DNA of 60,301 nt, the filler included, from Basidioascus undulatus (Eukaryota): NCBI GenBank assembly GCA_000826855.1. It is 13 parts of 13 records of this genome, joined end to end, with 100 filler letters (N's around TTAATTAATTAA, not from the genome) between each part and the next. Parts side by side here need not be neighbours in the genome. Positions count along the whole stretch, not along the records: positions 55,780 to 60,301 come from JTLS01002133.1; 12 more parts are not named here. One strand, 5' to 3'. Position numbers and translations under genes: made by a program. Positions 9,250-60,301 of this stretch are shown here, piece by piece (position 1 is the first letter of the stretch; each line of letters starts with the position of its first letter). The notes under the pieces were generated by a model. That model was not told the origin of the DNA. It saw nothing but the letters and a program-made list of their open reading frames with translations, and searched no databases.

Positions 9250-9405
9250 NNNNNNNNNNNNNNNNNNNNNNNNNNNNNNNNNNNNNNNNNNNNTTAATTA
9301 ATTAANNNNNNNNNNNNNNNNNNNNNNNNNNNNNNNNNNNNNNNNNNNNCGGAGAAGGAGGGGAGGGGAGGGGACAAGGGATGCTGGCACTGGGAGAGGT
9401 GCGAT

Positions 9406-16398: not shown

Positions 16399-18579
16399 AT
16401 GCCACCCAAACCCGATTGGCCAGACAGCCTCAAGTCAGGCTCCTCCCGCAGTCCCTCCCATCCCGCACCGCGGCTGACCTAACCCGACACGGTCGCGCGA
16501 CCCTCGCAGGAAGTTCGTAGAGCGGACGTTCGCCAAGGCGACGGAAGCGAACAAGGACAAGGTCGCGAAGGAGCTCAAGGATCTCATTCACAAGTGCGTC
16601 GCCGGGCGAGAGGGGGCGGGGCGAGGAGGCTCACTGCACGGCGGGGCGTTTGCAGGGCGTACGCGGCCGACGCGCTCAACACCACCGACTGGACAAAGGT
16701 CGAAATCCAAGCGTGCGTGTCTTTCTCACAATCAGCTCATCCCAACGCTCACACCCCTTTCTACCTCAGCCTCAAGCCACCCACCGGCAAGCGGAAAGCG
16801 TGCGTCCTACCCCTCTCCCCAGCACACAGCCCTCCCATCTCACCCGCCCCCTCCGTCAGCAATTCCGCCTTCCCCTCCTCCTCCTCCTCGATCCTCAGCA
16901 TGCCCGTCGCAGACGAGGCAGACGCGCGGACGAAGCGCGCGCGGCGGTTCGAGCGCGAGCTCGAGATCGAGCGCCGGCGCGAGCGCGGCGAGGACGTGTC
17001 CATGGGCGCGCCCCAGATGAGCCTGTCCCGCTTCGTCAATGCTCCCGACGACCCCGCGCTCGTGAACCGCATGGGCGGGCTCTCGACGGGGAGGAAGAAG
17101 AAGTGGGCCAACTCGAAGATGCCGGGCTTGGAAGACGAGGGGGAAAAGACGTTCGATCCGGTGCGCTGAGGCTCTTCTTCCTGTGGCAGCAGCGCTGGCT
17201 TTAGGGGAAAGAGGAAGATACTCATGATAGGGTTCGAACAGAACGTGATTGACTGGGACCAGTACACGATCGTCGGGACTTCACAGCAGCTCGAGAAGCG
17301 GTATCTGCGTTTGACATCTGTGCGTGTGCCTTCCTCCCTGCCTCCCAGCTCACATTGAACTCATTCCCTCTCACCTTCCTCCCCCGTTCTATTCCACCCC
17401 CAGGCCCCCGACCCCTCAACCATCCGTCCCCTCCCAGTGCTGAAGCAGACGCTCGACCTCCTCAAGCGCAAGTGGCGGCAAGAGAACGACTACAGCTACA
17501 TCTGCGACCAGATGAAGTCTCTGCGGCAGGATCTGACAGTGCGTCCTCTCCCCGCCGCCCTCTCCTCTCCTCTCCCTTTCCCTCCCGCACCATCTCGGCT
17601 GAGCTCCTACGCGACTGCGCAGGTGCAACGCATCAAGAATGACTTTACAGTGTCCGTGTACGAGATACATGCGCGGATAGCGCTCGAGAACGTACGCCCG
17701 TTTCCGCGGTGCGCGTGCTTCGTGCGGCTCTGATCCGTTTCTGGGCTGGCGGACAGGGCGACATGGGCGAGTACAACCAGTGCGCCGCGACGCTGCAACA
17801 TCTCTACGCGCAGTGCGTCTCACTCCTCCCGCTCTCTTCCCCCCTCCGCCTCCCACTCACACGCCTCCCACTCACACGCCTCCCACTCACACGCCTCCCA
17901 CTCACACGCCTCCCATCACAGCAACCTTGCCGGCCACCCGCTCGAGTTCCTAGCGTACAAGATCCTATACCTCCTCTACTCGCGCAACTGGTCCGCCGTC
18001 AATGTCCTCCTCGGCGAGCTCACGCCCGAGCAAAAAGCCGCCGACGCCGTCCGCCACGCCCTGAACGTGAGGAGCGCCATGGCGACTAGCAACTACCATG
18101 CGTTCTTTAGGCTGTTTTTGAGCGCGCCGAATATGGGCGGGTGCGTTTGCGAGGGACGAAGAGAGGGAGCGGGGTGGGGTGGGGTGGAGTGGGGCGGGAG
18201 GCTGATAGGAAGGGAGGGAGGCAGGTACATCATGGACATGTTTATCGAGCGCGAGCGACTGAAGGCACTCATCTTTATGTCGAAATCGTGCGTTCTCTCT
18301 CCCTCTTCCCTCTTCCCTCCCCCACTCGCTTATTCCTCTCCCCGTTTCCCTTTCCTCACCTCTTCAACTCCCCTTCTCCTCCCTCTGCCTTTACCCTCTC
18401 TCGGCTCTAACCCACCCCTATTCCTCAAACGCAAAAGCTACATCCACCTCCCCCTCAAGTACATTGCCTCCGAGCTCGCGTTCGACGACGTGCACGAAGC
18501 GGCGCGCTTCATCGAGGCTCTCAAGGCAAACCACTGGGTCCTCCCCAAGTCCAGCAGCTCTCCCCCCCCGCCTCCGCCT
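16399..18579 (+). CDS. THP3: SAC3/GANP/THP3-family PCI protein (Thp3/LENG8-like); 3' end off-contig
   Basis: [40 protein letters not shown]...[45 protein letters not shown]...[16 protein letters not shown]. Confidence 0.9.
17847..17915 (+). repeat. Intronic minisatellite (CGCCTCCCACTCACA) x4.6
   Basis: Four exact 15-bp units plus a partial unit immediately upstream of a CAG acceptor. Confidence 0.95.
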
Positions 18580-41781: not shown

Positions 41782-41798
41782 AGATCGGAAGAGCGTCG
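41782..41798 (+). other. Illumina TruSeq adapter read-through
   Basis: The contig terminates in AGATCGGAAGAGCGTCG. Confidence 0.95.
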
Positions 41799-54725: not shown

Positions 54726-55779
54726 GGACCTCGCAGGGTCTCGAGCTGTGCTCCCCATGTATTTCGATTAGCTATCTCCAAGGAGTCAATGCCCCGGGGT
54801 TTTCGCTGTTAATATGGCCTGCTCTTCTCGGGAGTGAAGTACCGTCAATGTCCACGAACGACAATGTGAGTACGAGCACGCTGGCTGTTGGGCTCGTCTT
54901 TACAAGAGCCACTTGTGTATAATCTGGTCAATACCGTACTTCTGTGGAAGCAGTGAGAACACGACTATATAACATTGGGAAAGCAGAAGGGTACCAATCT
55001 TTTTGGGCAGCCCGCGACCCGGTGGATTGGACAACGTTTCTGGATGTGCTGTTCAAGCATCCAGAAGCGTGCTGTATTTGGGAGGTTTCCGTCTGCTGCG
55101 ATTCACTCACAGCTCAAACGAACTGTCCATACAAGCTGTACAAGGGTAGTTCCGTACTATCCACCTCCAAGGTCACGTCCAACGGAGTACAAAGCATCTC
55201 GCGAGCTCGTCAACACACAAACCGTCTTCAGCACCATCCAGGAGTTCACCGCCACAAGCCAGGGGACACCCTTGAGATCCGTCGTCTGACAGATACCCGT
55301 AATCTCCACTGTTCTCGTACTTTGTCCGACCCAGGAAAACCTGCACCCCCGATGCGAGATAGAGCACAATTCGGCCACATGTCCAGGACGCTCTCCGTGA
55401 CCTTCAGGACCTCCTCAAGCAGCTCGTACACCGTATCGTCCGGCCAGCCTGCCCGAGTAAGGCCCTGATCCAGTCCTCGGTGAATTGCACAAGGGAAATC
55501 GTCCGGAGGAAGGAAGACGCGGTGCCGGAGGCAGTGGAGGGGACGGTGAGGCGAGAACCGAGGCGAGAAGGGTCTGCAGAGTTTCGACGTCGCGAATCGC
55601 CGGGAGCAACGCGATGAGCGCGCGCGTTGGTGCGGTGTCGACGGCGTCTGAGGTAGGGGGGAGGGGAAGAGGGGCGCGGNNNNNNNNNNNNNNNNNNNNN
55701 NNNNNNNNNNNNNNNNNNNNNNNTTAATTAATTAANNNNNNNNNNNNNNNNNNNNNNNNNNNNNNNNNNNNNNNNNNNN

Positions 55780-56499
55780 GCACTTCCTCTCTCAGAGAAG
55801 GAGCATAACACAACGCACCATCGTTCTCCGGCTTCCAGCGCGCGTTGAACCGCTCTTCCTCCGCCTCGACGAAGTCGCCCTCCTCATTCTCGACCTTGGG
55901 CTGCGTGTAGCCCTGCACATGGTCAACGCGCAGCGTGCGGTTCAGCACGGACGCGCCGTTCAGGTTGTCCACGGCCAGGACCGTCGAGCGCTGGTCCTCG
56001 TACAGCAGGAACGCGAACCCGCGCGGCTTGCCGGTCGTCTTGTCGCGAGGCATGCTGCATCACCCGCGGCTCAAAGTCAGCAATGTCGATGGGGAGCGGA
56101 ACAGAAGATATGGGGACGCACTTGATATCAGCAATCTCGCCATATCTGCGTGGAGGCAAAGTTCGTTAGGCAAGACAGCGGTCGTCATGAGCGGGACGAT
56201 GCGCACTGGGAGAAGATGGTGAGCACGTCTCCCTCGGTGAGCTGATACGGTAGGCCTCCAACGAAGATGTGCGCCGAGTCTGCACACAGCCAATGCACCA
56301 CAAGCCGTTAGCAAAAGAGCGCGTTTGAAGCGATTACGGGGGCATAAGGACGTACCCTTGTACTGGTCGTGCCAACTCGCGGTGAGACCGAGCTCGAGCT
56401 CGCGGTCGTTCAGCCGCTGGATCTCTTTGACCACGCTGTGCCCAACGCAATTCCATCAGTCAAGACACTTTATGAAAAATTCGGGCATGCGCACTTCAT
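55780..56499 (-). CDS. IST3: RBMX2/Ist3 (Snu17) RES-complex RRM protein, 5' exons
   Basis: MN|VVKEIQRLNDRELELGLTASWHDQYK|DSAHIFVGGLPYQLTEGDVLTIFSQ|YGEI...RGFAFLLYEDQRSTVLAVDNLNG...LRVDHV. Confidence 0.93.
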
Positions 56500-57549
56500 A
56501 ATGTGGCGAACGTAGTCGTGGGTGTGATAAGAGAGCGGTGTGAGGCGTCGAGGACGCGATGAAGCGGAGGGAGGACAAGCTCGACAACCTCGGCTTCATC
56601 CGCGGATCTGGGCGGACGTCCGGGTCACCTTCCATGGGGTTGAATGTCGGATCGTACGTGTGCTTCTGTTTCTGATTTCTCTCTCCCGCTCTTTGGGTAT
56701 TTCAAATGAGTTGAGGAAAGTAATTTCTACATTTCCGGTCCTGGGAGATTGAAGCGGGTGTAGGCACCCCGTTTCACCCCAAACTCGATGGCGAGGACAG
56801 CCGCGAAGTCGTTCCCTTCAGCTCGGAAGTCGTGCAACTCCCCATAACGGTATACTTTAGTCACAGGAACAAAACTTTGTAATATTGGTTGAACACCGCC
56901 TGGGAAAGTTCCCTGTCAGCGTACGCTTGTGCGTTGCACACCTGCATGCGTGCATGCACACCCATTCGTTCAGTGGACCCCTCTAGTGTTGCTGATCCCT
57001 GCAGACAGCCAGCCAAGAGACTGTGATTGTGTGGAATACCTTGCTTGGCGGGTATCCCATCAATGCATACTGGAGGAGAAGTCCAACAGTCAACGTGCAA
57101 TCTGTCTGTCTATGAAAACACTACTGCGACGCAGCCTCGCTCACGCAATGTCGATGCCGCGAAGGTCAATTGCCAGTAAGAACAATTAATGAACCTCGTT
57201 GAAGCAGTGTCCATGTTCGGGGTATAAAATAAAAGGGTATCGCCCTACAAATCCGCCGTCTCCACTTAAAGTATATGAACGCGCTCCTCCTTCGCCTCTT
57301 CAATCCTCCGGGCACACCCGCCCAACCGGCGCCTCCACCCACCCCGGCCGAAAAAGTACCTTGCACTGGGACTTCTTCCGCCCCACGTCCGTCAGGCGCT
57401 CGAACAGCCGGTGGGACATGCAGTCCCCCCAGAGTGCCCGCCAGGGTGCGACGAGGCGCCAGCGGAGGATGTAAGAGTAGAGGAGGTGCGAGGGCTAGTC
57501 GTATTTTGTTTCCTTCTGTTCAAAGGAAAGGGGTGGTGAGAAGGGGAGG

Positions 57550-58439
57550 GAGAGGTTCATGAAAATTCGGGGCCGGGCGGGGGACGAGAGGCGGTGCAGT
57601 GTCGTATGAGGCGAGGAGACACTTGGAGAAGTCGCACTGCGCTTCGGAGCGGAAGCGGAGGGGGAAGGTGGGGGGTGGGTCGACGGTGAGTTGGACGGTG
57701 TCGAAGAGCGAGGGTCTACTGAGTTTTGGGCTGTTCCAGAGGGAATAAGCTGTCAGATGAGAAGATAAGATAGCAAAGAGGTTGAGGAGAATGAGAGCAC
57801 ACCGGAACTGTTGTTGCGGGGCACGAACCACCTTGCGTAGAACGCGGCGATGCCGTTCCAGCAGCTGTTGACGGGTATGGGCTCGTTTCTTCGGAGGAGC
57901 GTCACATTGTCCGCGTGCGCAAAGTACGGCCAGAGCGGCTTGACGCGGTCTCCGCAGAGGTCGCGGGTGACCCATCTGCCCAACGGCGGACGTGGGTGAA
58001 CTCGGCAGGAGGGTGGTGGAGTTGTAGAGGTTAGAGGCGATGTAGTAGTCTGGTTTGGGAGACTTTGTGGAGGGGGAGGGAGGCATTGAAGTCGAAGGAG
58101 GAGGCAGGGAGGAAGGCAGAGGGCGAACCAAGCTGCGCGCGGTCGGGTCCAGCTCGGCCAGTCGTGGGAGATGCGGAGGGAGTGGATGTCGATGAGGAAA
58201 GATATACGGAGGGTAATGATGAGAAGAGCGAGGTACAGGTGCAGTGTGGATGGCAATCTGAAGTATATGACCAGAGTGAGGGTGGTGAAGAATGTGAGGG
58301 AGGCAAGGAAGACGATGCGTTTCCGGCGGTGAAGATAGGAAGAGGATCGAAAGGAGGAGCGACGAGTACGGGGTGCGTTGGGATGGGGGAAGGCGTCGGA
58401 CCAAGCAGAGAGGAGAGTTGTCGTCAAAGTCGTCGTCAT
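57550..58439 (-). pseudogene. GT69 (Cmt1/Cap59-like) mannosyltransferase with internal deletion and frameshifts
   Basis: TM N-terminus and YYIASNLYNSTTLLP are directly followed by WVTRDLCG...WPYF...PIPVNSCWNGIAAF and FRSEAQCDFSKCLLASYD. Confidence 0.8.
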
Positions 58440-59792
58440 TGGCCTCGCTGTGTCGCACGTCGTCGTCGCTATGTCGTCGCGGCTGCGCGAGCTCAGCGAG
58501 CTCGTGCTTCTGTGACTCGCGGCCGCCTGGAAAAAACCTGGGGCAAAAGGTATCAAGTTGGCCATGGGATAGCTTCCCAGCTTTGTCTCGCTGAGCAGTT
58601 GGGGACGATGGGTGTGGAAAGGAATCGTGCACACAGCGATGCAGGCTTGAAAACGGGCAGCTCGGCGTGAACATTCCGTGACCGTCACGGTGCCCCTGTC
58701 AAGTTTCCCTTTTTTTTCGTACATGGCGTCTTGGACTTGGAAACATGTACATTATTGACGTGGAAGCACGTACCCTGAAGGCGCTCAGGGCGCAGGACGG
58801 AGTGGCTGTGGGCGGGAGCACAGCATGAAAAGCGGACGGTAGGTATGTAGGCTTTTATAGGAAGTCAGTGTGTCACTCGCGGTCAATGCAACGCTAGACG
58901 GTCTTCCCCGTCGGAACGCAGCTCCATATACAACCCTATTCATACGTGTGAGCCTTGCGACTCCTTTAGACTTTGGGATCCGCGACTGTGGGGAGAAGAA
59001 GGGGTCCACATAGGCTTGGAAGAGGTACCTGTCCACGTGTGCTAGAAATTTTTGTGACACAGTGGTGAGTGGGCCGCCCGTTCCGACGACAGATTCCGTC
59101 GAATAATTACCCACCAGTTCCGTCGTATAATTACTCCTTGACGCCTGCAATCCCAGGAAACATTAAGTGAAAAACACAAGAGTTTGCGCAGCGTGATCTT
59201 TCGTCGTGGTGGGGAGTGTGGTGAAGCTGACGACAGAAAACACGCAGACATTTGAGAGTGGAAGGCTGTAAATTACGATGACACGTGCGCAGTCCTCTGC
59301 CAGCGGCTGTTTAGCTGCTGTACCTCACCATGTTACAGTACTTGCGGTGAGGAGCTTGAGGCGAAAGAGGCCGCGCGGCTGGGGCGCAGGCCGGGCGAGG
59401 AGGGAAGGTATGGGGTGGCAAGCTAGCAGGGAGCGCGCGAGGGGACGATTTGGAAGATGACTTTTGAGGAGGAGAGGGCGTAGGACGTTGGTCTGGGGAT
59501 GGGGCTAGGGTGAACGGAAGGGGGCGAGGAGGTGGTGTCGGGCGGAGGGGGAGGGAAGGAGGAGGGGCTGCAGGTGGAACGGCGACTGTATCTCAACTCG
59601 GACTCGCGCATGAATTGCTTTTCCTCCATTCGAGCGAGCGACACCCTTTTCATGCACGGCGTCGACCGCTAATCGGCGCTTGACGCAGCAGGGGCAGATG
59701 GGGCCGGTATTTTCGTAGCCGGCAGACATGAGGAAGGCTGGATCTGCACCCTTCTCAGCGGGCATGCAACATACACCCACACTCGCAGCGTC

Positions 59793-60169
59793 TCATCTCC
59801 GATCCCGCTCGTAGTCTCTCCTCCGCTCGCCGTCCCTGTCCCGCTCATCGTACCCTCTCCGCCTATCGTCCTCCCTGCGCGGACTGCGGTTCCGCCCAGG
59901 GTCCCTCCGGACCTCCCTCTCTCGCTCCCTCGACCTATCCCGCCGTCGAGGCGGACTCCTCTCGCGCTCCCTCTCCCTCGACCTGTCCCTCCTCCCCTTC
60001 CGCTTCCTCTCCCGCTTCTCCCTCCGCGCGGCCTTCCGCGCTCGCTGCTCGTCCTTGCTCTCCTTGACTCCTCCGCCCGCGGCAAGCCGCTTCTGCTCCC
60101 GGATATACGCCGCCATCGGGTCCTCCTCGTCCAGACTGTCATCGCTGCTCGCGGCGTCCCCACCCGCGG
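59793..60169 (-). CDS. IST3: RBMX2/Ist3 final exon (DPMAAY motif and RS/RE-rich tail)
   Basis: The CAG acceptor at 60170-60172 is in phase with the donor after KPEND; reads SLDEEDPMAAYIREQKR...RDRSRERE...DRR*. Confidence 0.88.
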
Positions 60170-60218
60170 CTGTCCCAACCCCCCACCCACAGCCCTGGTC
60201 AGCATCTCCTCTCCTCCG

Positions 60219-60301
60219 GCACTTCCTCTCTCAGAGAAGGAGCATAACACAACGCACCATCGTTCTCCGGCTTCCAGCGCGCGTTGAACCGCTCTTCCTC
60301 C
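60219..60301 (+). repeat. Exact 83-nt terminal direct repeat of the contig start (55780-55862)
   Basis: GCACTTCCTCTCTCAGAGAAGG...CCGCTCTTCCTCC is identical at both contig ends; offset 4439. Confidence 0.97.

Follow-up and report, generated by a model that had tools for sequence, protein, structure and literature searches.

A contig of Basidioascus undulatus that closes into a 4439-bp unit carrying an intact RBMX2/Ist3/Cwf29 gene

The last of 13 contigs considered here from the genome assembly of Basidioascus undulatus (GCA_000826855.1) begins and ends with the same bases, and a gene resembling RBMX2/Ist3/Cwf29 runs off its left end and is completed at its right. The question raised by this contig (JTLS01002133.1, positions 55780-60301) is what DNA it represents: a free circle, a head-to-tail repeat that was collapsed to one copy, a linear chromosomal segment with which an assembler formed a loop, or some other artefact. 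The window, being the whole stretch of 60,301 nucleotides that was analysed, is made up of these 13 contigs (4575 to 4522 bases), which are separated by 100-base spacers (N..TTAATTAATTAA..N), and all positions are given along it. Comparison was made with DNA read sets of 2014 (X1) and of 2025 (X2), which differ in contig number and longest contig, and with a further set, X3. The run type of the latter is a tool's guess, but its splicing marks it as RNA.

Closure of the contig and its 83-base overlap

The first 83 bases of the contig (55780-55862) are identical to its last 83 (60219-60301) at 83 of 83 positions, with starts that are 4439 bases apart. The contig is a closed path with a unit length of 4439 bp when each 83-base overlap is counted once, which confirms the identical ends and the unit size reported in the first-pass annotation. 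The first writing of the overlap comprises 39 bases of intron 5 and 44 bases of exon 5 of the RBMX2 gene. Terminal self-overlap was tested for lengths of 11 to 200 bases and was found with the last contig only among the 13 of the window. The ends of the remaining 12 have no second occurrence anywhere in the window (25-mers), and no pair of contigs has common ends. The rest of the window also shows no relationship to the unit, with a best blastn match of 19 bases, no tblastn match and no shared 20-mers. It is a rough assembly, with adapter sequence at the end of one contig and purine- or pyrimidine-rich tracts at the ends of several.

The closure is also present in the read sets. X1 and X2 each have one contig of 3831 bases which runs from 58782 to 60218 and then from 55780 to 58173 with 0 mismatches and 0 gaps. 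This bears out the earlier proposal that the DNA downstream of the RBMX2 gene leads back to the DNA upstream of that same gene. The k=31 contigs of both runs tile the entire 4439-base cycle, again with 0 mismatches and 0 gaps, and they cross the 83 bases once per unit, unbranched and at the depth seen elsewhere in the unit. The end-to-end join is real DNA and it is also present in spliced RNA. Because they occur once per unit in the reads, the 83 bases represent an overlap that the assembler left untrimmed, not a repeat flanking the segment in the genome; the second writing at the right contig end (60219-60301) is not additional DNA. One earlier suggestion, an assembly loop with these 83 bases as its flanking direct repeats, is not supported in its literal form, as a branch or doubled depth would be expected and neither was found. 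There is, though, another repeat that could delimit a linear copy, namely the 224-base piece at 58588-58811. The figure of 83 probably corresponds to k or k-1 of the source assembler.

Genes and spacers of the unit

The RBMX2 gene lies on the minus strand and has six exons. Exon 1 (56495-56540) possesses at least 41 bases of 5′ untranslated region and the start codon (ATG, 56499-56497), and is followed by exon 2 (56356-56435), by exon 3 (56207-56279), where the RRM starts (RRM_1 positions 1-24, frame 56185-56307, E-value 6.5e-4), and by exon 4 (56122-56145) of just 24 bases. Exon 5 (55819-56054) holds the remainder of the RRM (RRM_1 in Pfam, 33.6 bits with a cut-off of 20.7, E-value 3.6e-8) and a conserved stretch behind it. 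Exon 6 (59724-60169), at the other end of the contig, codes for an acidic stretch and a tail rich in R, D, E, and S, with the stop codon (TGA) at 59795-59793 and at least 69 bases of 3′ untranslated region. The intron between exons 5 and 6 is divided by the contig ends into a 5′ part of 49 bases (60170-60218) and a 3′ part of 39 bases (55780-55818), both on the minus strand, and when joined has 88 bases with the form GTGCGT...GCTGAC...CAG. The other four introns have lengths of 59 to 76 bases and likewise follow GTGCG/GTACG..CTRAC..CAG.

These limits come from an X3 contig of 905 bases, whose exon ends define exon 1 and, together with the intron pattern, exons 2 and 4; its splice joint and the intron pattern define both parts of the divided intron. 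It contains all six exons and is spliced at exactly these five introns, and its joint from 60169 to 55819, which is 4351 backwards along the contig, is the intron across the contig ends. The spliced frame has 264 open codons from the ATG to the TGA, and the protein contains ...KPEND/AAGGD...DPMAAY... followed by the R/D/E/S-rich end. It is therefore an intact, expressed and correctly spliced RBMX2/Ist3/Cwf29 gene with a product of 264 residues. The first-pass annotation had described a circularly permuted but intact RBMX2/Ist3 gene, with an 88-nt intron restored on joining the ends and an in-frame KPEND-AAGGD...DPMAAY protein with an RS tail, and both the reconstructed frame and the X3 splicing over the ends agree with this.

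Among solved structures, exon 5 is related to human RBMX2 (5z56_Y, E-value 3.9e-19) and yeast IST3 (E-value 6.7e-14). The top five of the 46 distinct solved sequences matched are RBMX2 (3.9e-19) and forms of IST3 (about 1e-13), the next being PUF60 at 7e-8. A protein search with exon 5, in which 1300 of 1319 candidates were scored, gave identities of at most 78% among the 120 relatives listed, some of which bear the names Cwf29 or 'RNA-binding motif protein, X-linked 2'. We take RBMX2/Ist3 (Snu17)/Cwf29 to be the RRM subunit of the spliceosomal RES complex. The partners of this subunit in the complex are Bud13 and Pml1.

The unit has a second and only other gene, which lies just upstream of RBMX2 on the same strand (57300-58439, minus strand). 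While the earlier account of the gene content was right with regard to RBMX2, it overlooked this gene, a decayed CAP59/Cmt1-like glycosyltransferase (PF11735) recognised by Pfam and by six full-length homologues. The CAP59_mtransfer match scores 52.7 bits (cut-off 28.8), yet it extends over profile positions 160-215 of 242 only. Residues 133-152 of homolog P0001 correspond to 58047-57988 (frame -2) and residues 290-515 to 57974-57327 (frame -3), with residues 153-289 having no counterpart, which marks an internal deletion site at 57975-57987 on the minus strand. Judged against all six homologues, the gene lacks the region that joins the YYIASN motif to the WVTRD block, and its pieces lie in two frames. 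About 137 core residues are missing, and SKC is found in place of SEC. The gene is a dead relic rather than a working member of the family, and the damage looks old because further frame changes are present. The deletion point was also considered as the closing joint of the loop and was set aside, as X1 and X2 cross it without a branch and the gene has these further frame changes. Of protein searches with this frame, the 'longer' one scored 0 of 3959 candidates and the 'near' one 4 of 5162, the latter over 14-17% of the query with 48-62% identity.

Two spacers make up the rest of the unit. One extends from the 3′ end of the CAP59-like gene to the 5′ end of RBMX2 (56541-57299, G+C 0.52) and the other from the 3′ end of RBMX2 to the start codon of the CAP59-like gene (58440-59723), and neither has a recognisable gene. 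A novel closing joint, if present and intergenic, would be located in one of these two. Pfam searches of 39 of the 41 stop-to-stop frames of at least 60 residues matched RRM_1 and CAP59_mtransfer only, and to that extent the earlier statement that genes for replication, integrase, or transposase are absent from the unit holds. The unit has no partition gene and no recognised origin of replication, Rfam gave 0 matches, the tRNA scan gave 0 genes and the tandem-repeat scan found just two short low-complexity arrays. X3 has no cover on the CAP59-like gene and the spacers, from which no inference was drawn.

Gene order was also compared with 80 metagenome RBMX2 loci with exon 5 identities of 64-75%, of which 41 extend 3 kb or more upstream, 43 extend that far downstream, and 28 do so in both directions. 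Exon 5 occurs once per locus (80 hits in 80 of 80 loci). Other parts of the unit were found in 0 of the 80 at E≤1e-4, with matches at chance level only at E≤1 (best 0.012). These relatives are too distant to show the native neighbours of RBMX2, and protein searches with the CAP59-like frame and RBMX2 exon 5 provided no better-assembled close relative.

Branch points, depth and the nature of the unit

There are three k=31 branch points in the cycle, at 58144-58174, 58588-58617, and 58782-58811. The latter two are the ends of the 224-base piece upstream of the CAP59-like gene (58588-58811), which forms a separate k=31 contig in both X1 and X2. The first is a 31-base word (58144-58174) with further copies elsewhere in the genome, and it forms a contig of its own with raised depth (49 in X1 and 80 in X2, the latter being 1.6 times unit depth). 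In addition, a 32-base contig belonging to another locus matches 58019-58048, which codes for YYIASNLYNS, with one mismatch; this footprint of a paralogue is also present in X3 at a depth of 30.8. Regarding the depth of the 224-base piece, the two DNA runs disagree. In X1 it is 19 compared to 18.4 and 16.1 for the remaining cycle contigs, and in X2 it is 86.1 compared to 49.3 and 45, or 1.75-1.9 times as deep. The G+C content of the piece is 0.558 compared to 0.583 for the unit. The ratio of unit to paralogue fragment depth is 18.4/35 = 0.53 in X1 and 49.3/82.5 = 0.60 in X2, bearing in mind that contig depth is not copy number. Among the k=31 contigs on the unit there is no loose end, none continuing into unlike DNA (contigs sharing just 30 bases being outside this view), and no short closure contig of lower depth. 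The missing flanks and closure contig count against a chromosomal repeat, the flanks weakly, because other arms of the repeated 31-mer must exist and they too are absent from these contigs.

The best explanation, which is held tentatively and with a little less than even confidence, is a chromosomal head-to-tail repeat that was collapsed to one 4439-bp unit. In this reading the contig traces a single closed path through the assembly graph, with the 83 bases at its ends repeated by the assembler, and would stand for a chromosomal segment of a basidiomycete-like fungus present head to tail in two or a few copies. Each unit would have a transcribed RBMX2/Ist3/Cwf29 gene, a dead CAP59-type gene, and two spacers; the copies, presumably chromosomal and at least two in number, would have flanks that connect to one of the three branch points in 58144-58811. 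Assemblers commonly collapse tandem repeats (PMC7935868). The source contig passes all three k=31 branch points, which supports such a repeat, as longer words or reads must have supported continuity from unit end to unit start. Support also comes from the finding of no plasmid-like function in 39 of 41 frames, Rfam, or the tRNA scan. The similar unit to paralogue ratio in X1 and X2 speaks more for a fixed feature of the chromosome than for an unstable circle, though only weakly, because contig depth is not copy number. Against the repeat is the cutting of the contig at a site with no k=31 branch; an isolated cycle is cut by a de Bruijn assembler at a branchless site, whereas a flanked low-copy tandem duplication should be cut at the flank junction. 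The doubling of the 224-base piece in X2 fits one linear copy between two such pieces better than an array. A high-copy array was rejected, given that in X1 the unit (18.4) is shallower than both the repeated 31-mer (49) and the paralogue fragment (35); by estimate, a k=31 assembly of 34.6 Mb in 24,453 contigs would also not arise from a baseline several-fold below 18.

A free 4439-bp circular DNA, whether a stable extrachromosomal circle or a mini-ring, would hold the sole copy of RBMX2, the segment having no linear copy in a chromosome. This is considered unlikely, even though the contig has the form expected from an isolated cycle, in that its ends overlap by the length of an assembler word and it is cut arbitrarily in an intron with no k=31 branch. 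X1 depth is alike in all three cycle contigs, flanks are seen in neither DNA run, and the cycle was found in the read sets of both 2014 and 2025. All three branch points fall within 58019-58811, which holds the promoter and the 5′ portion of the CAP59-like gene, and they follow the order of the gene; therefore one paralogue elsewhere with short identical stretches could explain all of them, with none left for flanks. The head-to-tail joint of 60218 to 55780 in the X1 and X2 contigs suits a tandem repeat equally, the joints of a circle and a tandem duplication being identical. A circle has a low prior. Genes for replication or partition are lacking in the unit, as is a recognised origin. DNA circles that lack a centromere are unstable and vary in copy number, yet the depth relative to the paralogue fragment is alike in both runs here. 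Furthermore, the doubling of the 224-base piece in X2 would require an extra identical copy in the genome of X2 that is not in that of X1. A bolder form of this explanation places the only RBMX2/Ist3 copy of a basidiomycete-like fungus on a stably inherited 4.4-kb nuclear circle of ancient origin, beside a CAP59 relic. Such a circle would number roughly one per genome in DNA preparations made eleven years apart and would carry no gene for its own replication or partition; this is improbable.

Nor is it likely that RBMX2 has a single linear chromosomal copy between two direct 224-base pieces, the downstream one being in a neighbouring functional CAP59 paralogue, with no real closure and the assembler having followed a loop in the graph. 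The X2 depths of the 224-base piece (86.1 compared to 49.3 and 45) and of the 31-mer (80) would suit this arrangement, both DNA runs split the cycle exactly at both ends of the piece, and a paralogue with near-identical 5′ sequence exists (the 32-base contig, X3 depth 30.8). No novel joint is required, because every word of the loop would be present in the linear genome. However, the piece is not doubled in X1 (19 compared to 18.4 and 16.1), and with its G+C content near that of the unit a simple composition bias is no explanation for the difference between X1 and X2. A graph-based assembler would also be expected to stop at the 224-base repeat, but the contig passes it and is cut approximately 1.4 kb beyond (approximately 2.8 kb the other way) in an RBMX2 intron. 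Some other pipeline artefact, such as a chimeric join at a short shared word or extension round the loop, seems very improbable. It would accord with the adapter-ended contig and the tract ends of this rough assembly and with 83 not being a common assembler word size; yet two further read sets, in independent k=31 assemblies, gave the same closed tiling with no mismatch.

If the contig is a collapsed tandem repeat or a loop bounded by repeats, the result is an assembly note, with RBMX2 appearing truncated in the linear record. The correct record would then have the contig opened, the 83 duplicate bases removed, and RBMX2 annotated over the ends, because of this apparent truncation. Should a free circle prove true, a core housekeeping gene would reside solely on a small plasmid-like element with no centromere, which would be rare in nature, and the replication and segregation of such DNA would become questions.

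Comparison with known systems

Gene-bearing extrachromosomal circular DNAs of fungi, for instance those of Magnaporthe oryzae (PMC9694575), resemble the unit in being derived from chromosomes, carrying whole genes with a head-to-tail joint, and having no dedicated replication genes. Such circles usually form a rare mixed population beside the chromosomal copy, whereas the unit, as a putative circle, is found at contig-level depth in two read sets with no flanked chromosomal copy seen. With collapsed tandem gene arrays of fungi, such as yeast CUP1 and rDNA, the favoured repeat would have in common a head-to-tail unit collapsed to one copy. These arrays are high-copy, however, while here the copy number cannot be high (paralogue fragments of 35 and 49 in X1 being deeper than the unit at 18.4), and we know of no selective reason for amplification of RBMX2.

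The contig also resembles those with an untrimmed de Bruijn word overlap, having identical ends with nothing beyond them which occur once per unit in the reads. Such overlaps are usually those of plasmids, organelles, phages, or high-copy arrays, whereas here it is a nuclear segment of two genes. The CAP59-like gene has in common with CAP59/Cmt1 (PF11735, 'Cryptococcal mannosyltransferase 1') an N-terminal membrane stretch, YYIASNLYN, WVTRD...CWNG, LRFR...C, and a C-terminal block in the order of the homologues, and differs as a relic with approximately 137 core residues absent, mixed frames, and SEC changed to SKC. The RBMX2/Ist3/Cwf29 protein, with its single N-terminal RRM and an R/D/E/S-rich tail like that of RBMX2, is ordinary, and it is only its location in a closed loop that is unusual.

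Contig ends and the closed unit

The 13 contigs of the window are sorted by length, from 4575 down to 4522 bases, and are separated by spacers (e.g., 55680-55779) of 100 bases composed of 44 N, TTAATTAATTAA and a further 44 N. This linker carries stop codons in all six frames and is an artificial construct, not biology. The ninth contig (37263-41798) terminates on its right side in AGATCGGAAGAGCGTCG (41782-41798), which we take to be Illumina adapter read-through; its presence indicates that reads had not been trimmed and that this end is a dead-end tip of the assembly. Purine- or pyrimidine-rich G/C tracts are also present at several contig starts and stops (e.g., 9350-9379, 18550-18579, and 55650-55679), with one base class reaching up to 0.93 of the last 30 bases; such ends suggest an assembly fragmented by coverage drop-outs or low-complexity repeats.

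The last contig (55780-60301) has a length of 4522 bases, and its two ends (55780-55862 and 60219-60301) are identical in 83 of 83 bases, an exact match which cannot be due to chance and which gives a unit of 4439 bp. The other 12 contigs, tested for overlaps of 11 to 200 bases between their own two ends, have none, and comparison of contig ends across the window identified none repeated in another contig.

Three read runs were found with the unit's words, and their k=31 contigs were placed on one unit. The DNA runs X1 (2014) and X2 (2025) come from separate studies and each contains 0.99 of the unit's sampled words, their independence from the window being incomplete as either could have supplied the assembly; differences in depth, in the number of contigs and in the length of the longest contig mark them as distinct data sets. 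The RNA-like run X3, which shares its sample with X2, contains 0.16 of these words. In X1, and likewise in X2, a single contig of 3831 bases runs from 58782-60218 straight into 55780-58173 with 0 mismatches and 0 gaps, the joint jumping back 4439. X3 possesses a 905-base contig corresponding to the spliced message of RBMX2, a splicing factor gene (56540-56495, 56435-56356, 56279-56207, 56145-56122, 56054-55819, 60169-59724). Its four internal joints have CT..AC ends, that is GT..AG on the RBMX2 strand, while the fifth spans the contig ends, jumping back 4351. Taken together, these contigs therefore show that the contig ends adjoin in the DNA of the organism, and the X3 contig that RBMX2 is transcribed and spliced across them.

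Cyclic assembly paths are put out with a word-length overlap, the same stretch at both ends being the usual signature, and an isolated cycle is cut by the assembler where no branch exists. There is no branch at the site where this contig was cut. The 83 bases are crossed once by one contig in each DNA run, at the same depth as the rest, and represent one stretch of DNA written twice, since there is no k=31 branching at their edges and their depth is not doubled. The first-pass annotation had included among its readings a loop caused by flanking direct repeats. In its literal form, with the 83 bases as a genomic direct repeat on either side of a linear segment, this is rejected, as branched k=31 graphs and doubled depth would be expected, whereas the X1 and X2 contigs pass through once at undoubled depth.

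Gene content of the unit

RBMX2 lies on the minus strand, exiting the left contig end inside an intron and resuming at the right end. With exon ends taken from the separate RNA-like contig of X3, the joined message has an open frame of 264 codons, from ATG at 56499-56497 to TGA at 59795-59793. The intron across the contig ends comprises 88 bases (60170-60218 and 55780-55818; GTGCGT...GCTGAC...CAG), and the four others (59, 76, 61, and 67 bases) have the same pattern. The permuted RBMX2/Ist3 gene and its 88-nt intron, as first annotated, are thus upheld and strengthened by the spliced contig. Exon 5 matches Pfam RRM_1 (E-value 3.6e-8) and exon 3 the first 24 positions of this profile. The closest solved structures are those of human RBMX2 (5z56_Y, E-value 3.9e-19) and, at about 1e-13, yeast IST3, with 7e-8 or worse for the other RRM proteins. 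In a large protein collection, in which 1300 of 1319 candidates gave a score, identity is at most 78% among the 120 relatives listed; those named are mostly from basidiomycetes (Wallemia and many Agaricomycetes), some being designated Cwf29 or "RNA-binding motif protein, X-linked 2". The protein has no unusual feature.

Elsewhere, RBMX2 is an ordinary single chromosomal gene, since exon 5 (64-75% identity) is present once in each of 80 metagenome loci fetched and, in named genomes, the contigs bearing the orthologue reach 4.4 Mb. Neither the unit's CAP59-like gene nor any other part of it was found in these 80 loci, which extend 3 kb or more upstream in 41 cases and 3 kb or more downstream in 43. 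The relatives compared are too distant to reveal the native neighbours of the gene in Basidioascus undulatus.

Directly upstream of RBMX2 and on the same minus strand is a decayed gene for a CAP59/Cmt1-type glycosyltransferase (58439 to about 57300), absent from the first-pass annotation. Its match to PF11735 (CAP59/Cmt1 mannosyltransferase) scores 52.7 bits, but covers only profile positions 160-215 of 242. A full HMMER search identified 142 relatives, the full-length ones having 360-730 residues, and six full-length homologues were mapped back onto the DNA of the unit. For homologue P0001, residues 6-86 correspond to 58325-58080 in a first frame, residues 133-152 (motif YYIASNLYNSTTLLP) to 58047-57988 in a second, and residues 290-515 to 57974-57327 in the first again. 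Residues 153-289, about 137 residues forming the domain core, have no counterpart, the flanking pieces being 13 bases apart. Further downstream, the frame differs again between the LRFR...SKCLLASYD block and the following LHRL...RPRIFMN block. From the start codon, 228 codons can still be read in one frame without a stop. The gene is a relic. At 58019-58048 the unit is matched, but for a single base, by a 32-base contig of another locus, whose depth is 35 (X1), 82.5 (X2), and 30.8 (X3). All branch or paralogue signals (58019-58048, 58144-58174, and 58588-58811) follow the order of the relic gene and are confined to its promoter and 5′ portion. They are most simply read as the trace of a close CAP59 paralogue elsewhere, itself expressed, which has short identical stretches in common with the relic.

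No further family was found with Pfam in 39 of the 41 stop-to-stop frames of at least 60 residues, which agrees, as far as these frames extend, with the earlier statement that the unit holds no replication, integrase or transposase gene. Rfam gave no match to the unit, a tRNA scan identified no gene, and tandem repeats are limited to two short low-complexity arrays. The inter-gene spacer (56541-57299), in which no gene was recognisable, has a higher A+T content than any other part of the unit (its G+C is 0.52 versus 0.58, with windows down to 0.48). Should the unit prove to be a circle, this spacer would be the first candidate place for an origin.

Branch points, depth and the underlying molecule

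In X1 and X2 alike, four pieces cover the cycle: the 3831-base contig (depth 18.4 in X1, 49.3 in X2), a 473-base contig (58145-58617; 16.1, 45), a 224-base contig (58588-58811; 19, 86.1), and a lone 31-mer (58144-58174; 49, 80). Neighbours overlap by 30 bases, which gives three branch points. Relative to the rest of the cycle, the depth of the 224-base piece is 1.75-1.9 in X2 and 1.03-1.18 in X1; it is doubled only in X2, a point on which the two runs disagree.

Real words that form a closed cycle are compatible with a circle, a head-to-tail chromosomal repeat or a single linear copy between two copies of a repeat exceeding the word size. A head-to-tail repeat, which the first-pass annotation had also considered, is our leading reading, held tentatively and at somewhat less than even likelihood. 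The ratio of unit depth to paralogue-fragment depth is similar in X1 (0.53) and X2 (0.60), which weakly favours a fixed chromosomal state. Such a repeat requires flank junctions, for which the three branch points are the only candidates and the depth pattern clearly fits none; loose ends were not seen, yet flanks are possible because contigs sharing only 30 bases were evidently left off the unit. The contig would also be expected to be cut at a flank junction, although a best-overlap assembler, rather than one using a word graph, could output a loop with flanks as such a contig, and an assembler of this kind is conceivable given the unusual overlap length of 83. A high-copy array is excluded by estimate: in X1 the paralogue fragments exceed the unit in depth, and a baseline several-fold below 18 is incompatible with 34.6 Mb in 24,453 contigs in that run. 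A linear single copy between two copies of the 224-base piece fits X2 well and is nevertheless unlikely, as it fails in X1, the G+C of the piece (0.558 versus 0.583 for the unit) gives no ground for bias, and a graph assembler should have stopped the contig at such a repeat. The free circle of the earlier reading would directly explain the form of the contig and the even depth in X1, but we regard it as equally doubtful, since a low prior attaches to a small circle lacking a centromere and replication genes that would carry the sole RBMX2 copy and reach contig-level depth in both preparations despite the eleven years between them. Some other artefact of the pipeline is less probable still. Ordinary chromosomal explanations are ranked first.

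The overlap at the ends of the unit is the same familiar artefact as the untrimmed overlap of circular assembly paths. In yeast, CUP1 and rDNA are examples of tandem arrays whose collapse is a known assembly problem (PMC7935868), and for Magnaporthe oryzae circles that bear genes have been described (PMC9694575). A tandem duplication is described as yielding split reads at a joint of the type that a circle also produces (PMC10462705).
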